Positions 615-18,543 of a stretch of 20,000 bases of DNA are shown here, piece after piece. Position 1 is the stretch's first letter, and every line of letters begins with the position of its first letter. Both the position numbers and the translations under genes were made by a program. The notes beneath the pieces were generated by a model that was not told the DNA's origin, did not search any database, and saw only the letters and a list, made by a program, of their open reading frames with translations. The stretch comes from an uncultured virus (IMG/VR IMGVR_UViG_2718218494_000001) (Duplodnaviria > Heunggongvirae > Uroviricota > Caudoviricetes), in the IMG/VR virus record IMGVR_UViG_2718218494_000001. One strand, 5' to 3'.

Positions 615-657
615 TACTGTATATTTAAACAGTATAATCATGCGAGGATTTAGTCAA
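615..657 (-). promoter_or_regulatory. SOS (LexA) box overlapping a sigma70 promoter
   Basis: TACTGTATATTTAAACAGTA at 615-634 (CTGT-N8-ACAG). Minus strand has -35 TTGACT, a 17-bp spacer and -10 TACTGT inside the box. Confidence 0.88.
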
Positions 658-671
658 TCTGTCGTGACATG

Positions 672-2290: not shown

Positions 2291-3033
2291 CACTCAGCCT
2301 CCACCTTGATGCCAGCGGCAGACGAGAGTAACTCAAGCGCCAATCGCACTTGATGCTCAACTTCATCAGCTAATGGTGATTTGTAAGTATTCCTATAGTC
2401 CGGCAACTTCACAGTGACGGTGCGGGGTTCCAGGCATTCAGCAGGCTTAGTGCTCCAGCCGTGCCACCACATGAAGGCGCAGTAAGCGGCAACGTCGCGC
2501 GGATCACCTTTGGCGATATGCTGGTGAAAGTGCGTCTGGCATTGACTTGGCCACCCATCCTGTTTCCAGTCCGCGTCGTAGCCGTATTTTAATTGGGCCT
2601 TGTACAGCTTCTCTGCTAGGGCAGTGCAGAAGTCGGTCACCAACTTCTGCGTATCCGGGTGAAGCTCGGATGGAATTACCGGTGCAGGCTTCACGGTGCG
2701 GGACTCCAGCTCGGCGATGCGAAACATCACGCGCCGTGATTTTTCTCTCTCCCGCTCAAGCTCTGCGTCCAGCTCGGCGATGCGCTTCTCTGCCGCTTCC
2801 GCCCTGGCCTCCTGCTCATGCGCTTCGCTCCATCCGCGATTGCAGTGAGCCTCCGTGGCTTGCGACTTCTCCAGCGCCTCTACCAATGCGAGAATGTTTT
2901 CCGGCGTCATTAACTCTTTGAATGTTTGCCTGGCAATGGTCGCCTTCACATATCGAGCTATATGGGCAGTCTCCTTGACGTCAGTTGCCGCCGCTTTCAG
3001 GCTCTGCGCCAGTTTGGTGATATCAGTTGTCAT
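2290..3033 (-). CDS. Ead/Ea22-like family protein with an internal extra domain
   Basis: MTTDITKLAQSLKAAA…TPENILALVEALEK, a coiled-coil AEAAEKRIAEL and an RTVTVKLP motif. ATG 3033 overlaps the upstream stop. Confidence 0.78.
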   Translation of the reverse strand: MTTDITKLAQSLKAAATDVKETAHIARYVKATIARQTFKELMTPENILALVEALEKSQATEAHCNRGWSEAHEQEARAEAAEKRIAELDAELEREREKSRRVMFRIAELESRTVKPAPVIPSELHPDTQKLVTDFCTALAEKLYKAQLKYGYDADWKQDGWPSQCQTHFHQHIAKGDPRDVAAYCAFMWWHGWSTKPAECLEPRTVTVKLPDYRNTYKSPLADEVEHQVRLALELLSSAAGIKVEAE

Positions 3034-3455
3034 GCGGCACGCTCCCATTTCACGCCATTTTTCACCAACTGGCGGCAGTGCCGAATAATTTCAGCTCGCC
3101 CAACTTTGTTACCCAGCCTCCATGGGGAATAAAACTTCTCTTTATCAACCTCTTCCCCGGTTGAGTTTTCGGCGTCATACGCATACCCAATGCCATCCCA
3201 ATCAGTGGTTTCATCGATTAGCCGGTTGTGGAGAATGTCAAACGCCTCTTGGCTATCTGCCTCCCCCCAATAGTCAACGGTGACGACTTCCCACGTCTGG
3301 TACCACATGCAGTTTGAATAAATCATCCCTTCGCCGCGTGACCACACTTCCCGTCGGTATTGGCGTGGCATAAGAGCAATCAAAATCTTCATGGCGGCGG
3401 TGTTAATTTTTTTCTCAATGCGCGGTTTTTCGTTGGTATAGCGTCGCTTGTTCAT
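3030..3455 (-). CDS. Hypothetical phage protein (141 aa)
   Basis: ORF coupled at both ends; no recognised domain. Confidence 0.7.
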   Translation of the reverse strand: MNKRRYTNEKPRIEKKINTAAMKILIALMPRQYRREVWSRGEGMIYSNCMWYQTWEVVTVDYWGEADSQEAFDILHNRLIDETTDWDGIGYAYDAENSTGEEVDKEKFYSPWRLGNKVGRAEIIRHCRQLVKNGVKWERAA

Positions 3456-3643
3456 TTGGCCCCCTCGCGCAGCTGCTTGGCAATATAATCCGCAAGTTCG
3501 CCTTTTTTATTTAGGTTTTGCATCTCAATCAGGTCGGACATTGCAAGTCCATTGGTCGGCGAGATAACAACAAAGTTACCGTTAACTTCAAACTGGCGAC
3601 CTTGCTTCTCCATGCGTTTCACAAAATCAGCGACCTTTGACAT
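3452..3643 (-). CDS. Hypothetical phage protein (63 aa)
   Basis: ORF with GGAGGT RBS, coupled to its neighbours. Confidence 0.65.
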   Translation of the reverse strand: MSKVADFVKRMEKQGRQFEVNGNFVVISPTNGLAMSDLIEMQNLNKKGELADYIAKQLREGAK

Positions 3644-4037
3644 TTAACACCTCCAAAACGAAAGACTTCGCCCACTCGGCCTCTAGATGACATTCCATTG
3701 ACACAAGATGCGCGGCAAACTCCTCCACCCCATCAGCCTTAATCCCGGCTACGATGCGATCGGTGGCGGGGGTTTGTACTGCCGTGACATTAGACCGGTG
3801 GTCATTCCATCCGCGCGCATATATCGGATTTATGGACATGCCGTCCTTCACGCAGTACCGCTGGCCACCACCATTGATAACTTCAATCTCTTCCGCAACG
3901 GCTGCCTTCAGCGCCATATTCTCCGCAGCAAGCTGCTGGTACGATTTCGCCAGCTTCAGGAACTTCTGCTCTCTGATCGACAGCTCGCCCGCAGACTCCA
4001 GCGACCGAATGAGCTCGTTTACTGTTTCGATGTTCAT
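3627..4037 (-). CDS. Hypothetical phage accessory protein (136 aa)
   Basis: Likely start is ATG 4037 (MNIETVNELIRSLESAGELS…), in ATGA overlap with the small upstream ORF; TPATD…IKADGVE motif common in enteric phages. Confidence 0.72.
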   Translation of the reverse strand: MNIETVNELIRSLESAGELSIREQKFLKLAKSYQQLAAENMALKAAVAEEIEVINGGGQRYCVKDGMSINPIYARGWNDHRSNVTAVQTPATDRIVAGIKADGVEEFAAHLVSMECHLEAEWAKSFVLEVLNVKGR

Positions 4038-4168
4038 GCTGTCACCCACTCGATCGCCAGATAAGCCACATACAGGACGGCGACGATTGCCACCCAACCA
4101 ATGATGTTTGCCACCATCACGAACAGCAGCAGTGACCGCCGACTGTAATTCACGAAATCAAAATCCAT
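4034..4168 (-). CDS. Small membrane protein (44 aa)
   Basis: Manual translation MDFDFVNYSRRSLLLFVMVANIIGWVAIVAVLYVAYLAIEWVTA*; G-rich RBS; stop overlaps the next start. Confidence 0.6.
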   Translation of the reverse strand: MDFDFVNYSRRSLLLFVMVANIIGWVAIVAVLYVAYLAIEWVTA

Positions 4169-4229
4169 ACTTACCCCCGCTTACCCGTTTAACTTATTGA
4201 TTCAATTGATATCAATGAAGATCGTTGTT

Positions 4230-4577
4230 TTAGAACTCTTCGACCTTCCACCCGCCGCCGGCTTTTGCCGGGAGCTTCGTTACTCCGATGATCCGGAATG
4301 GGTACTGGTCGGCGGCGACTTTGGTTTTCACCCTGGCATCGTCGGTCCAGTAACCCCCCTTCACTTCGTGCATTTCCAGTTGGCCGTTTGCCAGCATCAC
4401 GGCGAAGTCAGGCGTGTAGAACGTGTTGTCAGCCAGACGCAGCTTGATGCCTTCGAACCGGTACCAGGCTATCTCCCCGTAGCGCTTACGCAGTTCAAGC
4501 TCTTGCGCATACGCCGTTTCGGTTTTGTTCATCTGGCCCGCTTTAAGCCGGCCTAGTGCCTGTACTGTCTTTCGCAT
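4230..4577 (-). CDS. DUF1064-like PD-(D/E)xK endonuclease
   Basis: YTPDF…HEVKG catalytic motif; position downstream of the replication genes. Confidence 0.72.
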   Translation of the reverse strand: MRKTVQALGRLKAGQMNKTETAYAQELELRKRYGEIAWYRFEGIKLRLADNTFYTPDFAVMLANGQLEMHEVKGGYWTDDARVKTKVAADQYPFRIIGVTKLPAKAGGGWKVEEF

Positions 4578-4582
4578 GATTT

Positions 4583-4659
4583 TTACCTTATTGGTAATTT
4601 ATAACCATAAACGGATCAATATCAATAGTCTTGCGCATATTTTATTACCCTTTTGGTAA
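4583..4659. promoter_or_regulatory. Two putative repressor operators flanking a leftward promoter
   Basis: TTACC-TTATT-GGTAA (4583-4597) and TTACC-CTTTT-GGTAA (4645-4659), with minus-strand TTGATA…TATAAA between them. Confidence 0.68.
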
Positions 4660-4696
4660 ACATTAAGGCGTAAAAAAACGCGCTTCCGCGCCGGTA

Positions 4697-5482
4697 TTAC
4701 TTGATGAGTCCTGCTGCCTTCCCTCGCCGGTATTCCTCCATCAGCCACTGTGCCGGGGTTATACCTCCGAGTGTCGCCGCGTTAGGCATGCATCCGAAGC
4801 TTCGACCTGGTGGATGGTAGGTATTGCCACCGGGGTCTGGAGGGGTGCTTATAGGCTCTGGCTTCGACTGGATGCTCAGAATCGGATCAGGTATCTGATG
4901 ACCTGCCGCGACCTTTGATGCCCATTCGTCAAGAAGCTTACGCGCATGTTTCTCAACTTCAATCTCACTTAACTGACGCTGGTACATCGCGCGCCTGGTA
5001 TCGCACACAATCCAGTACATGACAGGGTGGCGCCACGGGAATTGTTCTGGTCCGCCAGGCTGTAGGCTTTTCTCCTTGGCGTAGCGGTGAAACTCCCCCA
5101 TCACATCTTCGATGCTCACGCCAAGCACCATCTTGCTGTCTTTGCACCACTTGATGAATTGACCTGGTGACGGCCAGAACGGTGATTCACAGGCACGGGC
5201 ATGGCGCATTCCTGCTGATACCTGCTCGCGGGTACGGATACCACCTTCGGCGAAAGCGGCGATCCACTGGCGCTTAGCGTCGGTCTCCTGCTGTGCGGTC
5301 TTAAGGTTGGTCTGCTCTGCTGCCGGAAACAGTTGCTTGAGCTGTTTAAACAGGGCATCGACAAGTCTCTCTGCGCTGATGTTCACAACATTGTCTTGCT
5401 GAGCCTGGTGATTGTCCGGACCCATCATGCGAGCCAGGGCGCCGGCATCACGATTCTGAATTGCTGCGAATACGTTACTCAT
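4697..5482 (-). CDS. Lambda P-like replication protein (helicase loader)
   Basis: LFKQLKQLFPA…KRQWIAAFAEGGI…GMRHAR…PFWPSPGQFIKWC, characteristic of the lambda P family. Confidence 0.85.
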   Translation of the reverse strand: MSNVFAAIQNRDAGALARMMGPDNHQAQQDNVVNISAERLVDALFKQLKQLFPAAEQTNLKTAQQETDAKRQWIAAFAEGGIRTREQVSAGMRHARACESPFWPSPGQFIKWCKDSKMVLGVSIEDVMGEFHRYAKEKSLQPGGPEQFPWRHPVMYWIVCDTRRAMYQRQLSEIEVEKHARKLLDEWASKVAAGHQIPDPILSIQSKPEPISTPPDPGGNTYHPPGRSFGCMPNAATLGGITPAQWLMEEYRRGKAAGLIK

Positions 5483-6246
5483 AAGAAATCCTTCCAGCCT
5501 TCAGGGCTGTTCCAGTGTGGTACTTCATCGTCAGAGCTTTCACCGCGCTTTCCTGCCGCTCTTTTTTTCCTGTTCATCAGCAGCCGGGCAAACTTCTGCT
5601 CCCACTGCACGTGTTGCATCACATTGCCTTCTGCCATCCAGTAGGTGATGAATTCGATCAGATCTGATTTCTTGTAACCGTCAGCTGGTAGCGCATGGCC
5701 CCATGTTCTGGCGCGCATGACAAAGTCCTCTGACGGCTTCCAGTTTTCATGCATGGTGAATTTGCCAATTGGCTCTCCGATACCATCAACGACAACCGGA
5801 GGGACTTGAATTACTTCGCGCGCAGAGAGAGGGGTTTTTATTTCCCTGATCCCTGATCCCTGATCCATTCCTAATGGTACTTGTACCGTATCAGTACCGT
5901 ACTCATACGGTACTAGGGGTAAACCTTTGATTTTGCTTTCTTTTGGCTTATTCACTACCTGATGTTTAAGGAAATTAGTTATGACCCCAAAATGCTTGCC
6001 ATCAGGGGTGGAAAACATGGATAAATAACCACAGTTGGAAAGCTCCCGTATTAGTACCGGAATAGGAACGGATGGTTCTCGGATAGGGAAAACTGCAGCT
6101 TTGATAAGCTTCGGGTTTGCATTGAAATAGCCTTCATCATCTGCGTAATTAAGCAGACCAATAGCCAACAAGCAGGCTGGTTCTGATACCTCTGCCATGT
6201 CTTCATCGGCCCAGAACTCGGGCTTAATGGTGCGAATGCGGGCCAT
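5479..6246 (-). CDS. Phage replication initiator (O-like) with C-terminal DnaT-like DNA-binding domain
   Basis: MARIRTIKPEFW N-terminus; C-terminal FTMHENWKP…EFITYW…QWEQKFA; directly upstream of the P-like gene. Confidence 0.8.
   Translation of the reverse strand: MARIRTIKPEFWADEDMAEVSEPACLLAIGLLNYADDEGYFNANPKLIKAAVFPIREPSVPIPVLIRELSNCGYLSMFSTPDGKHFGVITNFLKHQVVNKPKESKIKGLPLVPYEYGTDTVQVPLGMDQGSGIREIKTPLSAREVIQVPPVVVDGIGEPIGKFTMHENWKPSEDFVMRARTWGHALPADGYKKSDLIEFITYWMAEGNVMQHVQWEQKFARLLMNRKKRAAGKRGESSDDEVPHWNSPEGWKDFL
5844..5913. repeat. Candidate phage origin repeats inside the initiator gene
   Basis: CCCTGAT x3 (5844-5864); GTACCGTA at 5883 and 5894 plus an inverted copy at 5906. Confidence 0.5.
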
Positions 6247-6455
6247 CAGATCACCTCCACGGCATTACCTTTTGAGGCCTCATGCATTAGCCGTTTTATC
6301 TCAGCATGGCGGCGGCGGTTAGTCTCGAGGGTGCATTCGACACAATGCCCGTTGTATACCCATCGCTCACTGTCATGGCCGTGCTTACATTGCTTACCGG
6401 TGTAGTAGCGCTTTAGTCCTGCCTTTGCCGCTTCGACGCGAGTAATGATCTCCAT
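6246..6455 (-). CDS. Small Cys/His (Zn-binding-like) phage protein (69 aa)
   Basis: MEIITRVEAAKAGLKRYYTGKQCKHGH…CVEC; AGGA RBS before ATG 6455. Confidence 0.7.
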   Translation of the reverse strand: MEIITRVEAAKAGLKRYYTGKQCKHGHDSERWVYNGHCVECTLETNRRRHAEIKRLMHEASKGNAVEVI

Positions 6456-6602
6456 AGTTCCTGTCTCACTCTGGTTGTGGTTACGGTAATTTTGCAGCAA
6501 GCCAAAAAAAAGATCAACCGTATTTGGATAATTATTACCGAATTGGTGTACAGGGAGAGGCAGGAGCCGCCTGGGGGTGGCGGCGAGGGTGAGTTTTGAG
6601 GA

Positions 6603-6836
6603 TTAACGTTCGTGGAACCAGAGGACCAGGTCGGATTTTGCGGAGATCCACTTACGGGATTTGCAGGCTTTAAACAGTCTTTCTAACAGAGGCTTACGTG
6701 GAATTCTTCTACGGCCAGTCAGGTGAACCTGAATGTAGTGGCTGGTCGTGCCGGCGTCACTTGCGAACTCTTCACGCTCTGCCGGAGAGAGGTCGAGCCA
6801 GCAGCGTTTGAAGTCAAATTTTTGCACATCGCTCAT
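6603..6836 (-). CDS. Cro-like transcriptional regulator (77 aa)
   Basis: HTH-like EREEFASDAGTTSHYIQVHL; divergent from the repressor. Confidence 0.72.
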   Translation of the reverse strand: MSDVQKFDFKRCWLDLSPAEREEFASDAGTTSHYIQVHLTGRRRIPRKPLLERLFKACKSRKWISAKSDLVLWFHER

Positions 6837-6874
6837 ATTTTTTAGTCCCGGACTAACTTTAGACAGCCTGATTA

Positions 6875-6965
6875 TTACCAATCTGGTGTAAAAATCAATG
6901 ACTGTTACCTTTTTGGTAAGTTTACCTTTATGGTAATATTCTATTAAATTTAATCAGTTAGGTAA
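6875..6965. promoter_or_regulatory. Immunity operator cluster between cro and the repressor
   Basis: Perfect TTACC-N5-GGTAA at 6905-6919 and 6922-6936; imperfect copies at 6875-6889 and 6951-6965. Confidence 0.78.
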
Positions 6966-6989
6966 CAATTCCAGGCTAAAAAAATAGAA

Positions 6990-7571
6990 ATGAAAAGCAT
7001 CTACGACATAAGACGCGACAACCTCAATGAGATAATCCGGAAGGATTTCGATAACACGCAACTCCGGTTTGCCGAGAGAATCAAAAAATCAGCTAACCTC
7101 GTTAACAGGTGGAGCAAGGGGACAAAAAATATCGGCGCTAACGCGGCACGCGAGATCGAGTCGTTCGCCGGAAAAGGTCGTTTCTGGCTGGATATCGACC
7201 ATCTGTCAGATACCCCGACGCTGCCGGAGATTATCGACCCGCAGGAATGGAGTGTGGAAAAGCAGGCAGCGTTTACCCTGGGTGTATGGATGGGACAGCA
7301 TCCGGATCTGAACTCAGAGAAAAAGGTTTCGGAAGCGGCCGGTATCGGCCAGGCGACCGTAAATCGCATCCTGAACTGCGAAGGCTCCACCAGCATTGGC
7401 GTACTGTCGGCTATCGCCAGGGCGTTCGGCCGCGATGCATATGAGCTGATCCTGCCGCCTGGTAATGCTGGTCTGATTGACTATGACCACCATGAATACG
7501 CCGGGCTGCCGCAGGAAGAGAAAAACAAGATCACCGCCTTCATCAAGTTCATCGTCAGCCAGAACCAATAG
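6990..7571 (+). CDS. Phage repressor with two HTH-like segments and no obvious S24 peptidase domain
   Basis: N-terminal TQLRFAERIKKSANLVNRW and a second EKKVSEAAGIGQATVNRILN; divergent from cro. Confidence 0.82.
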   Translation: MKSIYDIRRDNLNEIIRKDFDNTQLRFAERIKKSANLVNRWSKGTKNIGANAAREIESFAGKGRFWLDIDHLSDTPTLPEIIDPQEWSVEKQAAFTLGVWMGQHPDLNSEKKVSEAAGIGQATVNRILNCEGSTSIGVLSAIARAFGRDAYELILPPGNAGLIDYDHHEYAGLPQEEKNKITAFIKFIVSQNQ

Positions 7572-7626
7572 CCTCTAATCTACCTGTCACTCCTGCCGGG
7601 GGGATAACTTCCCGCGTCTCATACAT

Positions 7627-7778
7627 TTACCAAAATGGTAAACTTTTCCTCGTCACATCTATTGACTAATTCGTAAATTGATCAGATTATTACCTTAACG
7701 GTAACAGCAGGGCGTTGAATTACCAGAAACCCACCACCGGGTGGCTTTCTCATACCCCTGATATTTACCAAATGGTAA
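7627..7778. promoter_or_regulatory. Operators upstream of the recombination operon (PL-like), with a hairpin at ~7725-7750
   Basis: TTACC-AAAAT-GGTAA (7627), TTACC-TTAAC-GGTAA (7690) and a 4-bp-spacer variant TTACC-AAAT-GGTAA (7765). Confidence 0.68.
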
Positions 7779-7791
7779 TAGTGAGGTGTGT

Positions 7792-7941
7792 ATGCAATGG
7801 CAAATCATTAACGGCTGGTACTGCGTTACGGCATGCGGGCTGATGAGCTGGAAGTTTCGCACGCTGCCGGAAGCTATCAGCTGGGCATTCGTCAGCAAAC
7901 TGGCAGCAAAAACGGAAATGGGTATGGGGGTGAGCAAGTGA
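7792..7941 (+). CDS. Small hypothetical phage protein (49 aa)
   Basis: Manual translation MQWQIINGWYCVTACGLMSWKFRTLPEAISWAFVSKLAAKTEMGMGVSK*; GAGGTG RBS; stop overlaps the next GTG. Confidence 0.65.
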   Translation: MQWQIINGWYCVTACGLMSWKFRTLPEAISWAFVSKLAAKTEMGMGVSK

Positions 7942-8237
7942 ACATTCAGCAGATTAACAACCTGAAAAAAATCATGAACAACATCGACGGCGACTACCAG
8001 CTTAACCAGATGCTGTACGAGCGCCACGTCGAGCTTATCGACGCGATCAAGTTCCATCAGCTGCAAAAGCCATTCTACGAACTGGAGCGCAAAGGCGTGC
8101 GCAGCGAGATCCTGGAAGAGCTGATGATGAGCTCTGAGTTTGAAGAATGCCTGGCTGCGTATCAGCGGGAACTCACCGGCATCATTGCCAAGTGGGATCT
8201 GGCTGACCAACTGGATACGGCGAGGAACGCGGCATGA
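7938..8237 (+). CDS. Hypothetical helical phage protein (99 aa)
   Basis: Likely start is GTG 7938 (NIQQINNLKK…), coupled at both ends. Confidence 0.7.
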   Translation: MNIQQINNLKKIMNNIDGDYQLNQMLYERHVELIDAIKFHQLQKPFYELERKGVRSEILEELMMSSEFEECLAAYQRELTGIIAKWDLADQLDTARNAA

Positions 8238-9133
8238 TGCAGAACGCTGGAAGCATGGACAGAACCAAATATCTCGGCGGCAGTGATGTCGCCGGTATTC
8301 TCGGCATTAGCCCATGGCGCACTCCGCTTGAGGTGTATCTGGATAAGGTTCAGCCACGTATCAAACCAGTAGATCCTTCAAAGCAGAAAGTTTTCACGCG
8401 TGGCCAGCGTATGGAGCCATATGTAATTGACCTGCTTTCTGAAGAGACGGGCCTAGAAATTATTCACCGCGGTAACCGGTATATCCATCGTGATTACGGA
8501 TTTATCGCAGCAGAGATCGATGCAGAAGCGGCTACCGGAGAAAACATCGAGATCAAAACAGTGAGCCCATTCAAGGCCAAAGAATGGGGAGAGGTTCAGA
8601 CAGATGCTATCCCGGTGCATTACACGGCGCAGGCCATGCATGGGCTAATGGTTACAGGGAAGCAGGTATGTGTATTCGGCGTCCTGATCGGGGGTGATGA
8701 CTTCCGTATCTATCGTGTTGAGCGAGACGAAGAAACCATCCAGGCCATTCTCGAGAAAGAGGTCGCTTTCTGGGACCGGGTTAAAAACCTGAACCCTCCA
8801 GAAGCAACCAGCGTCAGCGACATATATCTGATGTTCGAAAAGGACTCAGGAACAAGTATCGAGGCTGACGGAAAGGCTCTGGCCCTTTTCAATGACCTGC
8901 GAGATATGAAATCAAAATTCAAGTATCTGGAAGATGAAATTGCCGTATCGGAAGAGAAATTAAAGCTCTACATGCAGGAGCACTCGATTTTGACGCTGGA
9001 CGGAAAGCCGATCTGCACCTGGAAATCTCAGGTAAGCAACCGGTTTGATCAGCAGTTATTTCAGGCGGCACACCCAGAACTATTCGAAAAATTCAAAACA
9101 GCAACGACATCACGCGTTTTCAGAATGAAGTAA
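8234..9133 (+). CDS. YqaJ-like viral recombinase/exonuclease
   Basis: RTKYLGGSDVAGILGISPW, EIDA…EIKT and Y-x-x-Q motifs; adjacent to recT. Confidence 0.9.
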   Translation: MMQNAGSMDRTKYLGGSDVAGILGISPWRTPLEVYLDKVQPRIKPVDPSKQKVFTRGQRMEPYVIDLLSEETGLEIIHRGNRYIHRDYGFIAAEIDAEAATGENIEIKTVSPFKAKEWGEVQTDAIPVHYTAQAMHGLMVTGKQVCVFGVLIGGDDFRIYRVERDEETIQAILEKEVAFWDRVKNLNPPEATSVSDIYLMFEKDSGTSIEADGKALALFNDLRDMKSKFKYLEDEIAVSEEKLKLYMQEHSILTLDGKPICTWKSQVSNRFDQQLFQAAHPELFEKFKTATTSRVFRMK

Positions 9134-9142
9134 GGAGAAAAA

Positions 9143-10165
9143 ATGTCTACCAACGCACTTAAGGCAGCTGCGACAGGAAACCAGGTCGCGCAGCATAGCG
9201 ACAAACCAACCACTCTGGCTGGCTTGCTCGCAGATCCAAAAATTAAGGCTCAAATGGCTTTAGCGCTTCCTAAGCACATGACTGCAGATCGCCTTGCACG
9301 AATCGCTACCACTGAGATCCGCAAGGTTCCAAAACTGGCCGCATGTGACCAGGCCAGTTTCCTCGGGGCAATTATGCAGTGTGCTCAACTCGGGCTGGAA
9401 CCGGGCGGTGCACTTGGCCATGCATACCTGATTCCGTTCGACAAACGCCAGAAAGTAAATGGCCGCTGGGAAACTGTATCGACAGAAGCGCAGCTGATTA
9501 TTGGTTATCGCGGAATGATTGACCTCGCCCGTCGGTCAGGTCAAATCCTGAGCATATCAGCGCGTACAGTCCATGCGAACGACAAATTCAGTTACTCATA
9601 CGGACTGGAAGAAACGCTCGAGCATTCACCTTGCGAGACCGGTGACCGAGGAGAACTTACGCATGTTTACGCCGTTGCACGCCTGAAAGATGGCGGCGTT
9701 CAGTTCGAAGTTATGAGCCGGGCAGACGTTGAGAAAGTTCGTGCCCTGAGCAAAGCCGGAAGCAGCGGACCGTGGGTGGACCACTTTGACGAGATGGCCA
9801 AAAAGACGGTGATCCGTCGCCTGTTTAAATACCTGCCTGTTTCTATCGAACTGCAAAAAGCGGTTGTGATGGATGAACGAGCTGAAGCCGGCCTGAGCCA
9901 GGATAACGCAGCTGTTATCACCGGTGAGTATTCCGTCGTAGACGATGAGCAGCAGAGCATGACAGCGGTTTCTGAATCTGATCGAGAAGAAGCGCGTGAA
10001 TACGCTAGCGCCATTCTGAACAGCCTCGATCCTTCTGTGGATGATGCAAAGGCGCTTTTTAAGCGGGCAGAAGACGAAATAAACGCGCTGGCTGAAAAGT
10101 TAGGCGATGAATATCACCAGGGATTCATGACGACGCTTAACGATATGCGTCCTGAATTTGCATAA
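9143..10165 (+). CDS. recT: RecT single-strand annealing protein
   Basis: ALPKHMTADRLARIATTEIRKVP, AQLGLEPG…AYLIPF, QLIIGYRGMIDLARRSG, EMAKKTVIRRLFKYLPVSIE. Confidence 0.93.
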   Translation: MSTNALKAAATGNQVAQHSDKPTTLAGLLADPKIKAQMALALPKHMTADRLARIATTEIRKVPKLAACDQASFLGAIMQCAQLGLEPGGALGHAYLIPFDKRQKVNGRWETVSTEAQLIIGYRGMIDLARRSGQILSISARTVHANDKFSYSYGLEETLEHSPCETGDRGELTHVYAVARLKDGGVQFEVMSRADVEKVRALSKAGSSGPWVDHFDEMAKKTVIRRLFKYLPVSIELQKAVVMDERAEAGLSQDNAAVITGEYSVVDDEQQSMTAVSESDREEAREYASAILNSLDPSVDDAKALFKRAEDEINALAEKLGDEYHQGFMTTLNDMRPEFA

Positions 10166-10216
10166 CACCACCACCGCGGCGCCGGGCGCGCCGCACTGAA
10201 AAAAAGAGAGGTAACG

Positions 10217-10465
10217 ATGAAAGGTGCATTTAACAGAAAGCAACTACTGGAGGTGGTGCCTGTATCGATGAGCACTATCGACCGCATGGAGAAAAACGGG
10301 GAGTTCCCTAAGCGTTTCTGGATCACAGACAAGCGCTGTGCCTGGAACAGCGAAGAGATCGAGCGCTGGCTGGATGAACGTCAGCAGAACGGTACAACGG
10401 AGTTTGCTGGAAAAAAGCCTCCGCTTGAGCAACGAGTATTTCGCCGGGTTGGTAATGCGGCGTGA
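10217..10465 (+). CDS. AlpA-family regulator / probable excisionase
   Basis: VPVSMSTIDRMEKNGEFPKR…AWNSEEIERWL. Confidence 0.82.
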   Translation: MKGAFNRKQLLEVVPVSMSTIDRMEKNGEFPKRFWITDKRCAWNSEEIERWLDERQQNGTTEFAGKKPPLEQRVFRRVGNAA

Positions 10466-10578
10466 CGTCGCTGGCGAGGTACTGGGAAAGGTGGTCAGGA
10501 TGGTTTCTGTACCTGGCCGCCGTATCCGCCTGGCTGTTCCTGCTGGCGGTCATTTTTCGAGAGGGTTGGATACGATGA
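10462..10578 (+). CDS. Small Trp-rich membrane peptide (38 aa)
   Basis: Manual translation MTSLARYWERWSGWFLYLAAVSAWLFLLAVIFREGWIR*; GTGA and ATGA overlaps at both ends. Confidence 0.55.
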   Translation: MTSLARYWERWSGWFLYLAAVSAWLFLLAVIFREGWIR

Positions 10579-10868
10579 ATCGGATGGAAAAATACCACGC
10601 GGATTATGTCTCGCAACGCAAAGCGCCCCCTCTTGTCGCCGTAACGCCGGCGGCAATGGAGATCGAGCAGCGCGCTATTGCTCGCGAGAAAAAAGGCCAG
10701 TACCGCCTGGCCGCTCGCCTCTGGCTTGAGTGCATGGATGCGGCCACTGGAGAGGTTGAGCGGGCCCGTATCGCTATACGCCGCGATCAGTGCATTGGCC
10801 GCGGGAATCGGCTTCGCCATGGATGCTATGCCGGGATCTGCGCCACCGCAGGGGTGATTTATGACTAA
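10575..10868 (+). CDS. PerC-family transcriptional activator-like protein
   Basis: AIAREKKGQYRLAARLWLECMD…RRDQC; start at ATG 10575. Confidence 0.7.
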   Translation: MNRMEKYHADYVSQRKAPPLVAVTPAAMEIEQRAIAREKKGQYRLAARLWLECMDAATGEVERARIAIRRDQCIGRGNRLRHGCYAGICATAGVIYD

Positions 10869-11019
10869 CCCACACGACAGCATTCGCGTAGGAAGTATCA
10901 CGCTGGTTTATTCGTCCGTGCGCCGTGGCTGGCTGGCGCCAGGCGGCCAGGTTATCCAGAACCCGCTGAAGGCTCAGCGCCTGGCGGAGCAACTGAATAG
11001 CAAGAAGGTGTCAGCATGA
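10861..11019 (+). CDS. DUF1317-like small phage protein (52 aa)
   Basis: Manual translation MTNPHDSIRVGSITLVYSSVRRGWLAPGGQVIQNPLKAQRLAEQLNSKKVSA*. Confidence 0.72.
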   Translation: MTNPHDSIRVGSITLVYSSVRRGWLAPGGQVIQNPLKAQRLAEQLNSKKVSA

Positions 11020-11609
11020 GCGGAAAATACACCCTGATCTATGCGGATCCGCCTTGGGCATACCGCGACAAGGCAGCCGACGGTGACCGCGGCGCCGGTT
11101 TCAAGTATCCAGTGATGAATGTTCTGGATATCTGCAGGCTGCCGGTATGGGAGCTCGCCGCCGAAGATTGCCTTCTGGCTATGTGGTGGGTACCGACTCA
11201 GCCGGTAGAGGCGCTGAAAGTCATGGAGGCCTGGGGATTCCGCCTGATGACCATGAAGGGATTCACCTGGCACAAGACGAACAAGCATAAAGGGAACAGT
11301 GCGATCGGCATGGGCCATATGACCCGGGCGAACAGCGAAGACTGCCTGTTTGCGGTGCGCGGGAAACTACCGGCCCGCATGGACGCCTCGATCTGCCAGC
11401 ACGTCACGGCGCCGCGCCTGGAGAACTCGCGCAAACCAGACGTTATCCGCGAGAAACTGGTGCAGCTGCTTGGCGATGTCCCACGCATTGAGCTCTTCGC
11501 ACGCCAGTCGTCTCACGGTTTCGACGTGTGGGGGAATCAGTGCTCGTCGCCGGCGGTGGAGTTGCTGCCAGGCTGCGCCGTGCCAGTAGTGAAGACGGAG
11601 GCCGCATGA
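11016..11609 (+). CDS. MT-A70-family adenine methyltransferase
   Basis: IYADPPW catalytic motif, AWGF, SRKP and RIELFAR…WGN. Confidence 0.9.
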   Translation: MSGKYTLIYADPPWAYRDKAADGDRGAGFKYPVMNVLDICRLPVWELAAEDCLLAMWWVPTQPVEALKVMEAWGFRLMTMKGFTWHKTNKHKGNSAIGMGHMTRANSEDCLFAVRGKLPARMDASICQHVTAPRLENSRKPDVIREKLVQLLGDVPRIELFARQSSHGFDVWGNQCSSPAVELLPGCAVPVVKTEAA

Positions 11610-11788
11610 CAACCATACTTTCAAACTTCCTGTGCGGTGCAGCGCTGATATGGCTGGGATACCTTGTCGTTCTGTTCATCCTTTGGGAGCGGCCTACACG
11701 TACTCATACAGCCTTTTTTGGCAGGTTATCGATACTTTTCGGCGTTGTGTGCGCGCTGGCAATGGCGCTCAAGGACGGTGCTGCATGA
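11606..11788 (+). CDS. Small protein with two hydrophobic segments (60 aa)
   Basis: MTTILSNFLCGAALIWLGYLVVLFILW…LSILFGVVCALAMAL; ATGA overlaps at both ends. Confidence 0.6.
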   Translation: MTTILSNFLCGAALIWLGYLVVLFILWERPTRTHTAFFGRLSILFGVVCALAMALKDGAA

Positions 11789-11976
11789 ACATTGCCGAAG
11801 AGGCCTCGCTGATACGACAACTCGAAGAGGCGCGCGCCATTATCAACCAGAGGAATGGTGAGATCATTCACCTGCAGAGAGAAGCGGCGCGCTACCGTGA
11901 ACAGCGGGATTCTGCAAACGCGATGGTTAAGTTCCTGCGTTGGCTCTTTGAGAATTCTTCGCAGGCGACACAATGA
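11785..11976 (+). CDS. Small coiled-coil phage protein (63 aa)
   Basis: MNIAEEASLIRQLEEARAII…; ATG 11785. Confidence 0.65.
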   Translation: MNIAEEASLIRQLEEARAIINQRNGEIIHLQREAARYREQRDSANAMVKFLRWLFENSSQATQ

Positions 11977-11992
11977 GCCGCCTCCGGGCGGA

Positions 11993-13243
11993 CTATTGTT
12001 CATTCATCCACTTTTCAAATGCAGACGGGGAGAACGGCACCAGGTCGTAATGCTCCCCGTTTATCCATGCATCAACCATATTTGCCCACTGCTGCAGCAT
12101 GTAGGCCCGCTGCCGGGAATACTCGGCCTTGTTGTAAACTGCCCTCACGCCCTTCTGTTCATGCGCAAGCGCCTTCTCTATCCAGTCTGAAGGGAAACCC
12201 GCTTCATGCAAAAGCGTGCTCGCTGTGCGCCGCAGGTCGTGCACTGTTAGAGGTTGCAGGTTCTCCCCAGCATCCGCTGCCGCAGCAACCGCGCGATCGA
12301 TGACTGAGTTAAGAGCGGCATTGGATAACGGCTTACTGGTGCTGTAGCGACCTGGCAACAGATAATCACTCCCGCCGGCACACATCTGCAGGCCTACCAT
12401 CAGATCCTGTGCCTGATGCGGAAGGTAGATGACATGCGACCGGCTTCCCTTCATCCTGTCAGATGGGATCGTCCAGGTTCCTTTGCTGAAATCCACCTCT
12501 TTCCACGTCGCCATGATGAACTCGGTTTTGCGCACCATCGTGATCAGGATGAGCTTCACAGCCAGTTTTAAGGTTGGCAAAGTGCTGACGGTATCGAGAG
12601 ACCTGAACAGCACGCCGATTTCTTCCGGCTGCAGGCAACGGTCACGCGGTTTAAACATGGCGATCGCCGAAGGTTTGATATCTGCGGCCGGGTTGAATAA
12701 CCCGTGCCCGCGGTCATTGGCGTACCGGTAAACGCTGCTGATGATTTCACGCGCCTGCACCGCCGTCGCACGTCCGCCGCGCTCGACTATGCGATCGCAA
12801 AGATCACGCACCATAGGGGTCGTTATCTCGGACATCATTTTGTTTCCGAGAACAGGCAAAATATCCCTGTCGATAACTGATTGCTTCATAGCCCGCGTAC
12901 TGTCAGCCAGGACCACATGTTTCATGTAGGCGTCGGTATGTACCGTAAATGTTTCGGCGCCGCGGATCCGTTTGATACCGTCACGCTTCGCCGCAGCCGG
13001 CGACTGGCCTGCGTTCAGCAGCTTTTTAGCCGCTATCAGTTCATCCCTGGCTTCGGCCAGCGTGATACCGTCACGACCATACTGACCGATAACCAGCGTC
13101 TCCCGGCGGCCGTTAATGCGGTAATCGTAACGAAACGAGATAGTGCCTGAGATCAGCACGGCTACATACAGTCCGTCGCGATCGGAGACCTTGTACATTT
13201 TGCCCTGCGGTTTCAGGTTTTTTAGTTTGGTATCGGTAAGCAC
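11993..13243 (-). CDS. int: Prophage tyrosine integrase (P4/IntS-like, with arm-binding domain)
   Basis: MLTDTKLKNLKP…DRDGLYV arm domain; catalytic R, K, HDLRR, H and Y residues. Confidence 0.95.
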   Translation of the reverse strand: MLTDTKLKNLKPQGKMYKVSDRDGLYVAVLISGTISFRYDYRINGRRETLVIGQYGRDGITLAEARDELIAAKKLLNAGQSPAAAKRDGIKRIRGAETFTVHTDAYMKHVVLADSTRAMKQSVIDRDILPVLGNKMMSEITTPMVRDLCDRIVERGGRATAVQAREIISSVYRYANDRGHGLFNPAADIKPSAIAMFKPRDRCLQPEEIGVLFRSLDTVSTLPTLKLAVKLILITMVRKTEFIMATWKEVDFSKGTWTIPSDRMKGSRSHVIYLPHQAQDLMVGLQMCAGGSDYLLPGRYSTSKPLSNAALNSVIDRAVAAAADAGENLQPLTVHDLRRTASTLLHEAGFPSDWIEKALAHEQKGVRAVYNKAEYSRQRAYMLQQWANMVDAWINGEHYDLVPFSPSAFEKWMNEQ

Positions 13244-13270
13244 ATTTCACCCGTGATGCATCATTTTTTC

Positions 13271-13320
13271 TGACGGTACGAGAGTATACCGTAATGGTAA
13301 TACCGTCAGGTATACCGTCA
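13271..13320. repeat. Putative integrase arm-type sites
   Basis: TACCGTCA at 13301 and 13313, TACCGTAA at 13287, inverted TGACGGTA at 13271. Confidence 0.6.
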
Positions 13321-13362
13321 AAAAATGTGAGATAGAGTGAATAGTGTTGAAGTGATATAAAG

Positions 13363-13389
13363 AAAAACCCCCTGTAAAAACAGAGGGTT
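13363..13389 (-). terminator. Terminator between att and int
   Basis: Minus strand AACCCTCTGT-TTTT-ACAGGGGGTT followed by TTTCTTT. Confidence 0.7.
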
Positions 13390-13431
13390 GAATTTCAATT
13401 TGAGTAGATATGATTAGCTATAATGTAGCCG

Positions 13432-13444
13432 TTAATCATTCCCC
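13432..13444 (-). other. Probable att junction (guaA-3'-end-like core remnant)
   Basis: Minus strand GGGGAATGATTAA shares GGGAATGA with the guaA end (GAG TGG GAA TGA); no guaA ORF lies upstream. Confidence 0.62.
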
Positions 13445-13880
13445 GTTACTGTGGATAATCAATATATTGTGTCTCTGGCAGTTGCTTTTCCTACCATATG
13501 TTGTCCCTCCCCGTTCTATTTTGTGATCGCACAGTGTGAAAAACGACATCACAGTGGAGACGCTGCTGACGGGATGATGTTCATCCAGGGTCGTAAGATC
13601 GGCCGGTACTGGTTACCCGCCGGACGAAGGGCCGGCCAACGCGCAGCGTCGGTAGCTGGCTTTAAAAATGCCGGCGGAAACTTAAAGATTAAGCTGCATA
13701 CTCTGCGAAATTTTGCAAATTTCACTCAACATGCTTCGTTCAGATCCCAATAGAGCTTTCACCATCGCCTGTAATAGCCGCCCTGCTGCGTGATTACTCC
13801 GCTCATCGGGTTGCTGGCGACAAGCCAATACCTGTTCGTGACAGGCATTGATTGAACCGTTATCCCTAACTAATAATGTG

Positions 13881-14556
13881 CCGACGATGCAGGTGGGACC
13901 GTGGTCCCAGGCAGATAAGCTGACAGATGACGCAGGTGGGACCGTGGTCCCAGGCAGATAAGCTGACCGACGACGCAGGTGGGACCATGGTCCCAGGCAG
14001 ATAACCTGACCGATGACGCAGGTGGGACCGTGGTCCCAGGGAGATAACCTGACCGGCGATACAGGTGGGACCGTGGTCCCAGGCAGATTACCTGACCGAT
14101 GACGCAGGTGGGACCGTGGTCCCAGACAGATAACCTGACCGACGACGCAGGTGGGACCGTGGTCCCAGACAGATAAGCTGACCGATGACGCAGGTGAGAC
14201 CGTGGTCCCAGACAGATAAGCTGACCGATGACGCAGGTGGGACCGTGGTCCCAGGCAGATAACCTGACCGACGACGCAGGTGGGCCCGTGGTCCCAGTCA
14301 GATAACCTGACCGATGACGCAGGTGGGACCGTGGTCCCAGACAGATTACCTGACAGATGACGCAGGTGGGACCGTGGTCCCAGACAGATTACCTGACAGA
14401 TGACGCAGGTGGGACCGTGGTCCCAGACAGATAACCTGACCGACGACGCAGGTGGGACCGTGGTCCCAGGCAGATAACCTGACCGATGACGCAGGTGAGA
14501 CCGTGGTCCCAGGCAGATAACCTGACCGACGATGCAGGTGGGACCGTGGTCCCAGA
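13881..14556. repeat. sopC: sopC centromere, 16 x 43-bp direct repeats
   Basis: Core TGGGACCGTGGTCCCA every 43 bp from 13894 to 14539, matching the F sopC SopB site; directly downstream of sopB. Confidence 0.97.
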
Positions 14557-14565
14557 GAGAATATT

Positions 14566-14590
14566 CAGGCCAGTTATGTTTTCTGGCCTG
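14566..14590. terminator. Inverted repeat downstream of sopB
   Basis: CAGGCCAG-N9-CTGGCCTG. Confidence 0.45.
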
Positions 14591-14643
14591 TGAGAAAGGA
14601 AATGAAGTAAAGGGAGATAACCGTAGACTAAAGCGTGTCCGCA

Positions 14644-15615
14644 TTAGACTCCTGGTTTCTCAAGCTCCTTAAGAATGGCTTCTATTTTCTCTATACACTC
14701 CGCAGGAATGCGGGACTTATCCAGGTTAAGCACCATTTTATCGCCCTTATACAATGCTGTTGCCCCTGGAGCAAACTGATGACGTGAGCTCAGATTAACT
14801 CTTGATGCGGGAGATTGTTTCAGTACGGATGTTAAAAGACTAATGACCTCTTCAGCTTCAAAGATTAGTCCCGCTTTCTTCTGATCGTGGAGAGTCTCAG
14901 CCTGCTGCTTCAGTAATTCTTCTTTATCTGCAAAAGCCTTCTGAAGGGCTTCACCTGACCGGGCAGACAGTTCTCCAGGATGTGCAAACAGGGCAACAAC
15001 GGATTTAGGCAGTTTGGCCGTATTAATACAGCGGGTAATGATCTTACGAGAAATGTTTTCCGCATCGGCAAGCGCAGAAATATTTCCTGCAAACTCATTC
15101 TGCAGCCGGCTTGTATAACGCAGGCCACGTTCATAAGCACTCGTCGGCCGATAATCGTTACCCAGCCGGGACAATGCAGCCATCTGCTCATCGTCCAGTT
15201 CACCAACCAGAACGCGATAATCACTTTCCGTCAGGATTGCGGCTTTACGGCGACGGCTGCCGTCTGCAATTTCTATGACATCAGAAACCCGGCGGCCGAA
15301 AGCTGGAGTCTGCTGACCGGTCAGTAAAAATGAAGGTATGAGATCATCCAGAGCATCTTCGGTAAGTAGTTCCTGATCACGCTCATTTCCTGACCATACG
15401 CGTGAGGCGCTCTCAACAGAGTCTCCCCGGAGCACCTCAAGGGTAAATTTTACTTCCCGTCCACATACCGGAAGAGAGATAGCATTACCGCGGGCCATAG
15501 CACCCACGCGCGCAATTAATGAATCCACCATCGGCGCGGCCGGCGCCGGTGATGAAGTATCTTCAGTCGATTGAGTATGTGTGGTATGCCTTGGAATGAC
15601 AGGGGCACGCTTCAT
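14644..15615 (-). CDS. sopB: Plasmid partition protein SopB (ParB family)
   Basis: MKRAPVIP…, [28 protein letters not shown]; 323 aa, like F SopB. Confidence 0.97.
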
Positions 15616-16781
15616 TATCTAATCTCCCAGCGTGGTTTAATCAGACGATCAAAAATCTCATTACAAACAGGTTCCCAGATTGAAAGTGCGTTTCGCCATG
15701 CGCCGGTCGAAGAACGTTGATCAATCGCCTGTTCGAAAACGGTTCTCATGCGGATCTGGCCTTTACCAACTTCATCGGTTTCACGTACCACATTTTTAAG
15801 AACCATGCTTCCCCATGCATCGCGAATTTGTTCTTCCATCCACGGTGACTGCGAACCATTGTTATTACTGTATTTGGTAAGGAGAATACGGACATCCGGC
15901 TCAAAGCCTTTAAGATCCACATTCCTGAGCAGATCACGAAGCATATCGAAAAACTGCAGTGCAGAAGTGTAATCGAACAGCTCTGCCGGGGTGGGAACAA
16001 TCAGCACATCAGCAGCGCATACGACATTGATCGTGCCAATACCGAGGTTCGGTGCGCTGTCGATAACAATCACATCATAGTCATGAGCGACCGTTTCAAT
16101 AGCAAGGCGGAGCATCAGATGCGGGTCGGTGGGCAGTTTTCCTTCATCAAATTTGCCCATCAGTTCAGTTTCAATGCGATGCAGTGCCAGGCAGGACGGA
16201 ATGATATCAAGGCCAGGCCAGCAGGTTGGTTTTATCGCATAACTGGCATCATCCTTTTCACCAAGATAAAAGGGCAGGAGAGTATCTTCCGCGTGTATAT
16301 GAAGATCGGGCACCCATCCGTGATACATCGAGGCTGTGCCCTGAGGATCATTACCCTCGACAAGCAGAACGCGTAATCCTTTCAGGGCCAGGTCCTGAGC
16401 CAGGTGAACAGAAACGGAGGTTTTGTAAACACCACCTTTGTGAGCAGCAACACCAATCACCGGCGGAAACGCATCTTCAGCACGGCGCAGTCGTGTACCA
16501 AATACATCCCGCATGTGATTGATTTGCTCGATGGTATAACCAACGCGTTGCTCAACTCTTCCACGGGTTTCCATATCAGGGTGAGGCAGCCGGCCAGCTT
16601 TCTCGGCATCCCTGATAGCCTGAGATGACACGCCAACTAAATCAGCTGCTTCACCAATCCTCCAGCGCCGGGTTATTTTCCGGGCTTCCGGACTGTCATC
16701 ATTAAACTGCGCAATGGCGATTGCTTTCGTCATTTCATGACCAGCACTTATGCACTGGTTGAGTGTATCCATGAGTCCCAT
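15615..16781 (-). CDS. sopA: Plasmid partition ATPase SopA (ParA family)
   Basis: [24 protein letters not shown]…, deviant Walker A HKGGVYKT; 388 aa from ATG 16781. Confidence 0.97.
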
Positions 16782-16803
16782 ACTGAACATCCTTTAATCA
16801 TCA

Positions 16804-17293: not shown

Positions 17294-17517
17294 GATCCAA
17301 TAATTGATCCCAAGGAGATCATAGTGAGATCCAAAAGAGATCCCCGGATCGCTCCAGCATGCGCTGTAACTGGCTTTAACGTCTGTCTGGATCGACTGCG
17401 GAATGTAAAATGTTGACTGTTATATGCATAATCTAATACTGTGATATGCAACGGTATTTACTGAGGTATGTATATCCGTTGACTGCGATACGTATTACTA
17501 CATCCTTTTGTGGATAA
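17294..17517. promoter_or_regulatory. Plasmid replication origin: GATC cluster, five iterons and a DnaA box
   Basis: GATC at 17294, 17306, 17317, 17328, 17339, 17347 and 17390; iterons at 17392, 17413, 17435, 17457 and 17479; TGTGGATAA at 17509-17517. Confidence 0.82.
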
Positions 17518-17532
17518 CCGTTGAGGATCAAG

Positions 17533-18543
17533 ATGACGAGCGAAAATAACAGCTTACTTCTGAACCTTCAGGAAGTTGATAAGACAACCGGCGAAGTTGT
17601 TAAGCTGGATGTCAACAGCACCAGTACCGTGCAGCCAGTAGCGCTCATGAGACTCGGTCTCTTCGTCCCAACTCTGAAATCAACAGGGAAGAGCAAGGCG
17701 AACCGGAAAAACGTTACAGACGCGACTGAGGAGCTTGTACAGCTGTCTATTGCCAAAAGCGAAGGGTACACTGACGTTAAGATCACCGGTTCGCGTCTTG
17801 ATATGGACACGGATTTTAAAGTCTGGCTGGGGATAATTCGCTCCATGTCGGAGTATGGGGTAAAAAGTGACACCCTGGAACTGTCGTTCGTCGAATTCGT
17901 TAAGATGTGCGGATTTAACTCCCGTCGTTCAAACAAAAAAATGCGCGATCGCATCAGTAATTCCCTGTTTAAACTTGCCTCGGTTACGCTGAAGTTCCAG
18001 AGCGAGACCAAAGGATGGACCACCCATCTGGTGCAGTCAGCCTATTATGACATCACCGAGGATATCGTTGAGATAAAGGCTGAACCTAAGCTGTTTGAGC
18101 TTTACCACATGGACAGAAGGGTACTGCTGCGGCTGAAAGCCATTGACGCCCTGCAGCGCAAGGAATCAGCCCAGGCGCTTTATACCTACATCGAAAGTCT
18201 TCCCCAGAATCCTGCACCTATTTCCATGAAACGGATGCGTGACCGGCTGAATCTCACCTCAAATGTCTATACGCAGAACCACACGGTGCGTAAGGCGATG
18301 GAGCAGCTGCGGGATATTGGTTATCTGGATTACACCGAGTTTAAACGTGGCCGAGCCACCTATTTCAGCGTGCATTATCGCAACCCCAAACTCATCAGTG
18401 GTCCTGTGAAGGTTCCGCGCAAAGCGGAAGAAGAGAAGGCGCCAGAGCAAAATTATGACGAAGTCATTAAGGCGCTGAAGGCTGCTGGCATCGATCCTCT
18501 TAAACTGGCTGAAGCCCTCTCAGCGATGAAGCCAGAAAATTGA
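17533..18543 (+). CDS. repB: Plasmid replication initiator, RepFIB family (IncFIB(K)-like)
   Basis: [52 protein letters not shown]; flanked by iterons. Confidence 0.9.

Follow-up and report, generated by a model that had tools for sequence, protein, structure and literature searches.

How the integrase gene of a phage that is normally specific for chromosomal guaA came to lie within a few hundred base pairs of a plasmid partition system is the question raised by this locus. The stretch analyzed here (hereafter the window) comprises 20,000 nucleotides of the uncultured virus record IMGVR_UViG_2718218494_000001 (IMG/VR), in which the open reading frame (ORF) listing and Pfam scans assign positions 1–13443 to phage DNA and everything from 13444 onward to the backbone of a Klebsiella pneumoniae IncFIB/IncFII plasmid. 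An earlier reading made from the letters alone (the sequence-only reading) had proposed that the integrase of an epsilon15-like prophage of the guaA type joined it to the plasmid at a degenerate attachment (att) site. We consider it highly probable that integrative recombination mediated by the phage integrase (Int), between the phage attachment site attP and a secondary site on the plasmid, produced this arrangement. Integration at secondary sites is itself a known mechanism, and what is presented is an instance in a clinically relevant plasmid for which we found no description in print.

Junctions, donor site and uninterrupted plasmid site

To locate the limits of the two parts, a 2.8-kb query across the join (window 11900–14700) was compared with phage and plasmid records. 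Nine phage records matched, none of them covering 80% of the query, and the similarity of eight ended at query position 1544, which is window 13443, with the ninth ending at 1540; these matches include Klebsiella phage BUCT711 (97% identity), epsilon15 (78%), and the predicted prophage ST512-KPC3phi13.3 (100%). The full query was matched at 100% identity by 8 plasmid records (pKN-LS6, pKPN-498 from KPNIH1 and from KPNIH10, pKPN-fff, two OW records, MN922301, and CP037929), while for the phage-free plasmids among the matches listed (H13–H25) the match begins at query 1539, or window 13438. Phage similarity therefore reaches up to 13443 and plasmid similarity starts from 13438.

The other end of the prophage lies beyond the start of the window and is visible in the identical plasmid pKPN-fff, where the whole element occupies 39,763 bp (L001 6978–46740) from int to the holin-endolysin-Rz genes, with contiguous coding-sequence annotation and no gap larger than about 510 bp. 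At this far junction the matching half of the attP core is found. Of the two structures that the sequence-only reading had left open, a prophage-plasmid cointegrate or a plasmid fused at attL, the first is borne out by a whole prophage with both junctions present, and the fusion at attL alone is not.

The uninterrupted form of the site is carried by the phage-free plasmid pBIC-1a (L002), whose bases 1–4006 are the left flank at 100% identity (4,006 bp) and whose bases 4001–7161 are the right flank (3,161 bp) with a single mismatch, at the core base corresponding to window 13440. The two alignments share 6 bases, and nothing is duplicated or deleted. Written in guaA orientation, the four sites are aataattgagt GGGAAT gattaacgg for attP (BUCT711), cagtaacg GGGGAT aaccgtgtg for the empty plasmid, cagtaacg GGGAAT gattaacgg for the window junction, and aataattgagt GGGGAT aaccgtgtg for the far junction in pKPN-fff. 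Base 13440 is T, the phage type, and C in the empty plasmid. One reciprocal crossover within the GGG would explain all four sequences. The exchange as reconstructed from the empty site is conservative and reciprocal, without duplication or deletion of the target, and both breakpoints of the prophage coincide with the crossover region of attP.

The primary site serves for comparison. In the chromosomal prophage record the int side shows the guaA end ...caacgATTGAGT GGGAAT GATTAAcgg and the far side shows ...aataATTGAGT GGGAGT AATCCCC, so that attP and the bacterial site attB share 11 bp in K. pneumoniae, ATTGAGTGGGA; for E. coli a shared core of 17 bp is reported in the available text of PMC9782041. 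The plasmid crossover falls within both, with its GGG inside the 11-bp identity, and by our arithmetic a break placed at random on a circle of 39,763 bp would hit these 11 bp in about 3 of 10,000 cases.

The free relatives of the phage bear on who owns the sequence beyond the join. BUCT711 and epsilon15 run from int through attP (aataattgagt GGGAAT gatt...) to Rz and endolysin and never continue with the sequence found from 13444 onward; since they close their circle across attP into the Rz gene, that sequence is not the phage's own, which settles a check proposed in the sequence-only reading. The check for an empty site has been answered by pBIC-1a. Uninterrupted, that site is carried by 1,327 plasmid records with a coverage of at least 80%, and in 781 of these the identity is at least 99%. 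The int gene is present in 12 of 72,556 plasmid records, comprising 8 with the identical event, 3 with a second event described below, and one 727-kb record that includes guaA. Eight identical records against 1,327 empty ones point to a single insertion inherited in one plasmid lineage.

That phage and partition and replication genes adjoin in a single replicon might also suggest a natural phage-plasmid in the manner of P1 or SSU5, in which the phage itself owns sopABC and rep and no insertion took place. BUCT711 (38.4 kb) and epsilon15 (39.7 kb) contain neither sop nor rep and close across attP, the same backbone is uninterrupted in the 1,327 records above, and the prophage is a discrete 39.8-kb block in plasmids of 133–286 kb. 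The empty site together with the free phage genomes refutes this explanation, and we give it practically no weight.

Joining by an insertion sequence (IS) was likewise rejected. The nearest IS-like gene is a frameshifted tnpB of the IS605 type, 230–1,400 bp past the far junction, and it is shared with the empty-site plasmid, in agreement with the earlier remark that no IS is visible at the join. This IS605-family tnpB (L001 5520–6745, equal to L002 2572–3770) is split by its frameshift into ORFs of 114 and 330 aa and is absent from the annotation in the PLSDB gene table.

Beside the join, the window retains elements of the integration module on the int side. The GGGAATGATTAA motif, the arm-like repeats and the terminator upstream of int, all named in the sequence-only reading, are present where it placed them. 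What is repeated between int and the hairpin is the ATACCGTCA(C) 10-mer, annotated four times as integrase-binding in the epsilon15 GenBank record; the arm-type Int site according to that record is ATACCGTCAC. Exact copies of ATACCGTCA start at 12586 (−), 12975, 13065, 13300, 13312, and 18848 (−), with one-mismatch copies at 13271 (−) and 13286. Allowing at most one mismatch, the window holds 12 copies against 3.14 expected, and none of 200 shuffled sequences reached 12. One further arm-type copy lies on the far arm, 87 bp past the core, so that arm-type sites ATACCGTCAC flank the core on both arms as in the Uetakevirus module. The attP core, ATTGAGTGGGAATGATT, is divided between the two junctions, with its right half GGGAATGATT(AA) at 13432–13443 and its left half ATTGAGT at the far junction (L001); next to int it is intact in BUCT711 and epsilon15. 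The published attP core of phiV10, epsilon15, and ZX5 is attgagtgggaatgatt, 190 bp from int (PMC9782041, available text). The integrase itself is a heterobivalent tyrosine integrase with an arm-binding N-terminal domain and a homologue of epsilon15 Int (78% DNA identity over int/attP). In the chromosomal context the terminator follows the rebuilt guaA stop codon. The copy in the window is not located at a guaA 3' end, where its sibling copies do sit; as had been noted, no guaA ORF follows the core, and the flank is a plasmid spacer (437 bp, earlier put at about 440 bp) leading into sopC, SopB, SopA, and the Rep3 initiator.

A second plasmid event, the choice of target and the copy at guaA

The same phage family has entered a plasmid on another occasion. 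A 97%-identical phage is present in pRJBSI76-3 (CP068692), in its "conjugation assay" derivative, and in IR12197_1 (split over two records). Its int-side junction reads caatCGAGT GGGAAT gatt and its far junction aattgagt GGGTAT cggagac..., after which come about 28 initial codons of a different integrase of the DUF4102 type. The target core is guaA-like (caatCGAGT GGGTAT cgg), and the crossover lies somewhere within the 7 bp GAGTGGG. Beside the core are a truncated DUF4102 integrase fragment, IS5075, and a resolvase gene. The prophage may have suffered a deletion, as its ends are only about 29 kb apart in the record. These flanks are widespread, with at least 1,868 plasmid records covering at least 80% of the far-side flank and 1,846 covering the int-side flank. 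The target segment (L014 2380–2560, L015 2180–2300) has a caatCGAGTGGGATAA end in an IncC plasmid and tagagtGGGTATcgg beside sul2, and from these sequences it is probably the att site or core of another guaA-targeting island. The island may be GIsul2. For the three events in which both junctions are seen (guaA, the plasmid studied here, and the second plasmid), the crossover windows all contain GGG, and this would be consistent with a fixed exchange point at or beside GGG, that is, at or next to the GG/A step of the core.

With the second event in hand, the alternative that Int took no part can be weighed. A circular or replicating phage genome might have joined the plasmid by illegitimate recombination through 3-bp microhomology, of the host end-joining or replication-slippage type; GGG is the only sequence common to both partners at the crossover, the target matches the core poorly, and better matches nearby were ignored. 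Such joining would have to place both breakpoints in the attP core, inside the 11-bp stretch through which the phage recombines at guaA, to be exactly reciprocal with no loss or gain in either partner, and to recur at the same core position in the second plasmid event of the family, and we regard it as improbable. The breakpoints in the core, the exact reciprocity, the intact int, arm sites and AlpA-type gene, and the replicate plasmid event are the grounds on which the Int-mediated reading stands, and we infer from them that Int was the catalyst, in support of the integrase-mediated recombination first proposed for this locus. In the proposed course of events, the tyrosine integrase of this epsilon15-like podophage, which would usually recombine its attP core (ATTGAGTGGGAATGATT) with the chromosomal guaA 3' end, would have recombined attP with ...AGTAACG GGGGAT AACC... 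on a pKPN3-type IncFIB/IncFII plasmid, 437 bp from sopC. The exchange would have been conservative and reciprocal, inside the attP core, at the GGG common to both partners, and would have left a 39.8-kb prophage between hybrid attL and attR with the replication and partition genes untouched. The prophage would thereby have retained int and the AlpA-type candidate for an excisionase, along with arm sites on either side.

Several further observations bear on this reading. The first, which weighs against it, is the quality of the target. The plasmid site (GGGGAT against GGGAAT) shares only 9 of the 17 core positions, and a scan for look-alikes over 13.5 kb of plasmid backbone on both strands (27,028 positions) returned 289 positions that match at 9/17 or better, among which 34 have the GGG in register; across these 27,028 positions the target is no more core-like than its background. 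A 13/17 site, ATTGAGTGGAAATCACA, lies about 420 bp away inside the frameshifted tnpB and was not used. On the 13.5 kb of backbone the target is thus rejected as the best core look-alike, and a 9/17 match with a better unused site nearby means that core likeness does not explain the choice of site. The description of the target as a degenerate att site therefore holds with regard to the exchange at the att core, but the match is much weaker than that wording implies, as 9/17 is unexceptional. The insertion resembles a rare side reaction whose product was then fixed.

The second concerns the sequencing runs in which a chromosomal copy can be followed; the occupied primary site seen there in one carrier counts in favor of the reading, within the limits of the contigs. 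Logan contigs of four runs (X3, X16, X17, and X21) were compared with window 10000–13880. In X3 a contig of 9,483 letters (depth 46.2) stops exactly at 13443, one of 505 letters (depth 19.8) runs from 13414 into the plasmid, and one of 14,828 letters (depth 21.4) follows 13414–13443 and continues with ACTCAATCGTTGCTGGCGGC..., the reverse complement of the guaA 3' end; these branches are de Bruijn contigs with a 30-letter phage overlap against a bridging criterion of 31 letters, and their depths are not copy numbers. Such a fork is the expected product of a repeat with two contexts and implies that guaA is occupied by a sibling prophage in this carrier, so that the question whether the host guaA site is taken by another element is answered for at least one carrier. 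Run X21 has the phage in the guaA context only, X17 has a diverged phage at guaA together with an empty plasmid site, and X16, a many-contig sample, has the phage and an empty plasmid site; X17 and X21, which lack the junction, are uninformative on frequency. In X16 there is also a third continuation from 13442 (TTTTCAATAAATTAATGG... / TTTTCAATAAATTAATGGTTAACTTTAATA) that is neither guaA, attP nor this plasmid; it could represent an altered attP or one more context of integration.

A near-identical phage end at guaA in the same isolates is also a repeat able to mis-join assemblies, and the join could in principle be a chimera of the chromosomal prophage and the plasmid through this repeated sequence. 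There are 8 complete plasmid records from several submitters in which both junctions are identical, KPNIH36 was finished with long reads (PMC4937214, available text), and X3 contains 31-mers joining the phage end to the plasmid, in the contig that starts 30 letters inside that end. Nor would a chimera produce a far junction that is reciprocal and has the plasmid-type core base. An assembly artifact, against which the sequence-only reading had asked for a check, is accordingly very unlikely.

The third point, again one against the reading, is immunity. The plasmid prophage and the chromosomal guaA prophage of ST512 are 99.9% identical over 15.3 kb from int to terminase and over 4.2 kb from tail fibre to lysis genes, with int 100% identical to that of the guaA prophage ST512-KPC3phi13.3, and they differ across the whole structural module of about 17 kb, to which the closest match is the prophage ST11-OXA245phi3.2 (96.6% identity over 87% of the query). 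By sequence the two copies would be homoimmune mosaics; they carry the same immunity region, so that simple superinfection of a cell already lysogenic would be an awkward path. The plasmid copy may derive from the prophage already resident, once induced, or else from another phage with homogenization afterwards.

Whether occupation of guaA drove the event is a separate matter. It seems reasonable to suppose that an occupied primary site favored insertion into the plasmid. The exchange could instead have been mediated by Int as a rare side reaction in a non-lysogen, or on a plasmid in transit through another species, with the guaA prophage acquired or homogenized later. This course is suggested by the difference of about 17 kb in the structural module, by the identical immunity regions, which speak against superinfection of a lysogen, and by the RecT and exonuclease encoded in the prophage, which could homogenize shared segments. 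Nothing decisive stands against it, as the co-occurrence in X3 fits either order, and we rate its chance at somewhat below even.

Some plasmid-filed records deserve mention beside the guaA copies. NZ_CP129873.1 (727 kb, circular) and NZ_CP129740.1 (229 kb, linear) have a guaA-guaB or chromosomal sulfatase flank adjoining a prophage of the same family; each could represent a piece of chromosome, a megaplasmid, or a fusion of chromosome and plasmid. NZ_CP079771.1 and NZ_CP079768.1 (E. coli, 41,027 bp each) are of whole-phage size with a 78% match to the lysis end of the prophage, and may be circular phage genomes deposited as plasmids.

Features of the window

The phage part of the window carries early, recombination, immunity and replication genes and is 100% identical to plasmids of the pKPN-fff/pKPN-498 type (Table 1). 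The integrase matches the lambda Int chain 1z1b with an E value of 7.8e-4. The AlpA-family protein is a candidate excisionase or regulator, the excisionase role being suggested by its family, and RecT and an exonuclease are annotated in the record. On the plasmid side, the Rep3 initiator, the SopA ATPase, SopB and the 43-bp sopC array are all present as in an IncFIB/SopABC backbone, and PLSDB types the replicon as IncFIB (and IncFII).

Table 1. Coordinates of features discussed in the text (window positions unless a record handle is given).
Feature	Position	Strand	Basis or remark
Integrase-proximal 13.4 kb of the 39,763-bp epsilon15-like (Uetakevirus) prophage	1–13443	−	remainder beyond window start
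Helix-turn-helix (HTH; XRE/CI-type) repressor candidate of the prophage	6990–7571	+	Pfam HTH_3 7.1e-10; plasmid record annotates HTH regulator
AlpA-family small DNA-binding protein	10217–10465	+	Pfam Phage_AlpA 4.1e-06; record annotations agree (AlpA family)
Tyrosine integrase (int), 416 aa, full length	11993–13243	−	Pfam Arm-DNA-bind_3 7.4e-19, Phage_int_M, Phage_integrase 1.4e-21
Arm-type repeats within int	12975–12983, 13065–13073		two intragenic copies, likewise in epsilon15
Predicted P-arm cluster of arm-type Int repeats	13271–13279 (−), 13286–13294, 13300–13308, 13312–13320		match ATACCGTCAC
Phage-borne rho-independent terminator	13366–13389 (13389 to 13366)	−	terminator scan, 10-pair stem and T run; same feature in epsilon15 record
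Phage half of attP core, GGGAATGATTAA	13432–13443	−	in chromosome replaces guaA last codons and stop
Crossover window, CCC on + / GGG on −	13441–13443		sole bases common to phage and plasmid parents at the join
Plasmid spacer, secondary att site to sopC, 437 bp	13444–13880		1 mismatch in 3,161 bp against pBIC-1a, located in core
sopC centromere, 43-bp unit x 15.7	13881–14555		Tandem Repeats Finder
sopB/parB	14644–15615	−	Pfam SoPB_HTH 3.4e-39; annotated ParB
sopA/parA	15615–16790	−	Pfam AAA_31, CbiA; annotated SopA
Rep3-type (RepFIB) replication initiator	17521–18543	+	Pfam Rep3_N, Rep3_C
Second plasmid event of the phage family	L009 4514–4520, L010 2495–2501 (pRJBSI76-3); also L008, L012 (IR12197_1)		

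Two further observations concern the spacer. An ORF of 100 aa at 13451–13753 has no Pfam match. In the empty plasmid it corresponds to an ORF of 110 aa (L002 3984–4316), likewise without a Pfam match, that starts 17 bp before the secondary site, so that the insertion takes away its first codons; some plasmid records annotate a hypothetical protein here, and it is a putative gene. Perfect DnaA boxes (TTATCCACA) occur at 13450–13458 (−), 7 nt from the crossover, and at 17509–17517 (−), directly upstream of rep, two in the window against 0.15 expected and with 2 of 200 shuffled sequences reaching two. In the empty plasmid, near-DnaA boxes (GGGGATAAC and TGTGGGTAA) flank the secondary site on the opposite side. 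We claim no role for the box beside the crossover.

Meaning and comparison with known systems

These observations place a normally guaA-specific phage, at base-pair resolution, inside a large plasmid of a well-studied hospital-outbreak lineage of K. pneumoniae (pKPN-498, pKPN-fff, and six others). They suggest that its integrase is able to use a site with just 3 bp of uninterrupted identity at the crossover, that natural double lysogens exist with one copy on a conjugative plasmid, and that guaA-like cores on resistance plasmids offer a second entry point to the same phage family. The case is relevant to host and gene exchange between phages and plasmids and to annotation, where true phage-plasmids have to be told from prophages that sit in plasmids. 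It serves mainly as a clean example from nature, and as a lead to the carriage of phages by conjugative plasmids.

More tentatively, and against what we consider the likelier outcome, the plasmid-borne prophage may still be active, with conjugation as a second route of transmission, the plasmid copy may serve as a portable patch of homology, and landing on plasmids may be recurrent. Carried on an F-type plasmid, the phage would then spread among Klebsiella strains whatever their capsule or receptor type. The 15-kb near-identity with the guaA copy would let homologous or Int-mediated recombination fuse plasmid and chromosome at guaA in an Hfr-like manner. Repeated landing, including that on the guaA-like core which another guaA-targeting island left behind, would be a recurring route rather than a single accident.

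Integration of temperate phages into plasmids is expected to be rare, conserved chromosomal sites being assumed, and "prophages integrated in plasmids" are treated as a rare confounder in the available text of Pfeifer et al. (PMC7969092). A prediction survey of K. pneumoniae counted 6,191 prophage-like regions on plasmids in 1,437 genomes (PMC10252525); its available text gives neither junctions nor mechanism and contains no occurrence of "guaA," whereas the present case gives base-level resolution of the two junctions, of the empty site and of the donor attP. Neither plasmid locations nor guaA are discussed in the prophage survey from which ST512-KPC3phi13.3 was deposited, as far as a term search of its available text goes (PMC7371120). 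The available texts of PMC5142620, PMC4937214 and PMC6867608, which treat pKPN-498, give no account of the insertion or its junctions, and the word "phage" is never used in those of two detailed evolution studies of this plasmid. A further candidate for a prior description, PMC4609946, concerns in its available text a linear plasmid prophage of another strain and is not relevant. The insertion was thus not found described in print by a search that lay outside subscription journals and supplementary tables, where a mention is possible.

Among characterized systems the closest is the Int-attP module of the Uetakevirus phages epsilon15, phiV10 and vB_EcoP_ZX5. The int DNA of the window is 76–79% identical to that of the Salmonella and E. 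coli phages and 96–100% to four Klebsiella phage records; the attP core is the same and lies about 190 bp upstream of int in each, and epsilon15 further shares the arm-type site ATACCGTCAC, the terminator, and the gene order int-attP-Rz. Unlike the 17 bp reported for E. coli (PMC9782041, available text), the primary attB of K. pneumoniae shares 11 bp with attP. The partner in the present case also differs from that of all three phages, being a plasmid site with 9/17 core identity and not guaA.

Lambda is reported, in the classical work of Shimada, Weisberg and Gottesman, to integrate at secondary attachment sites when attB is absent. As at those sites, the target here matches in part, the exchange is conservative, the break is at the attP core, and the event is rare. 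Unlike them, the present event occurred naturally and is fixed in a clinical plasmid lineage, its primary site is occupied and not deleted, and the role of Int is deduced from the products. With phage-plasmids of the P1, SSU5 and N15 types the window shares the presence of phage and plasmid maintenance genes on one extrachromosomal replicon; unlike those replicons, it contains part of a discrete integrated prophage with att junctions in a pre-existing plasmid.

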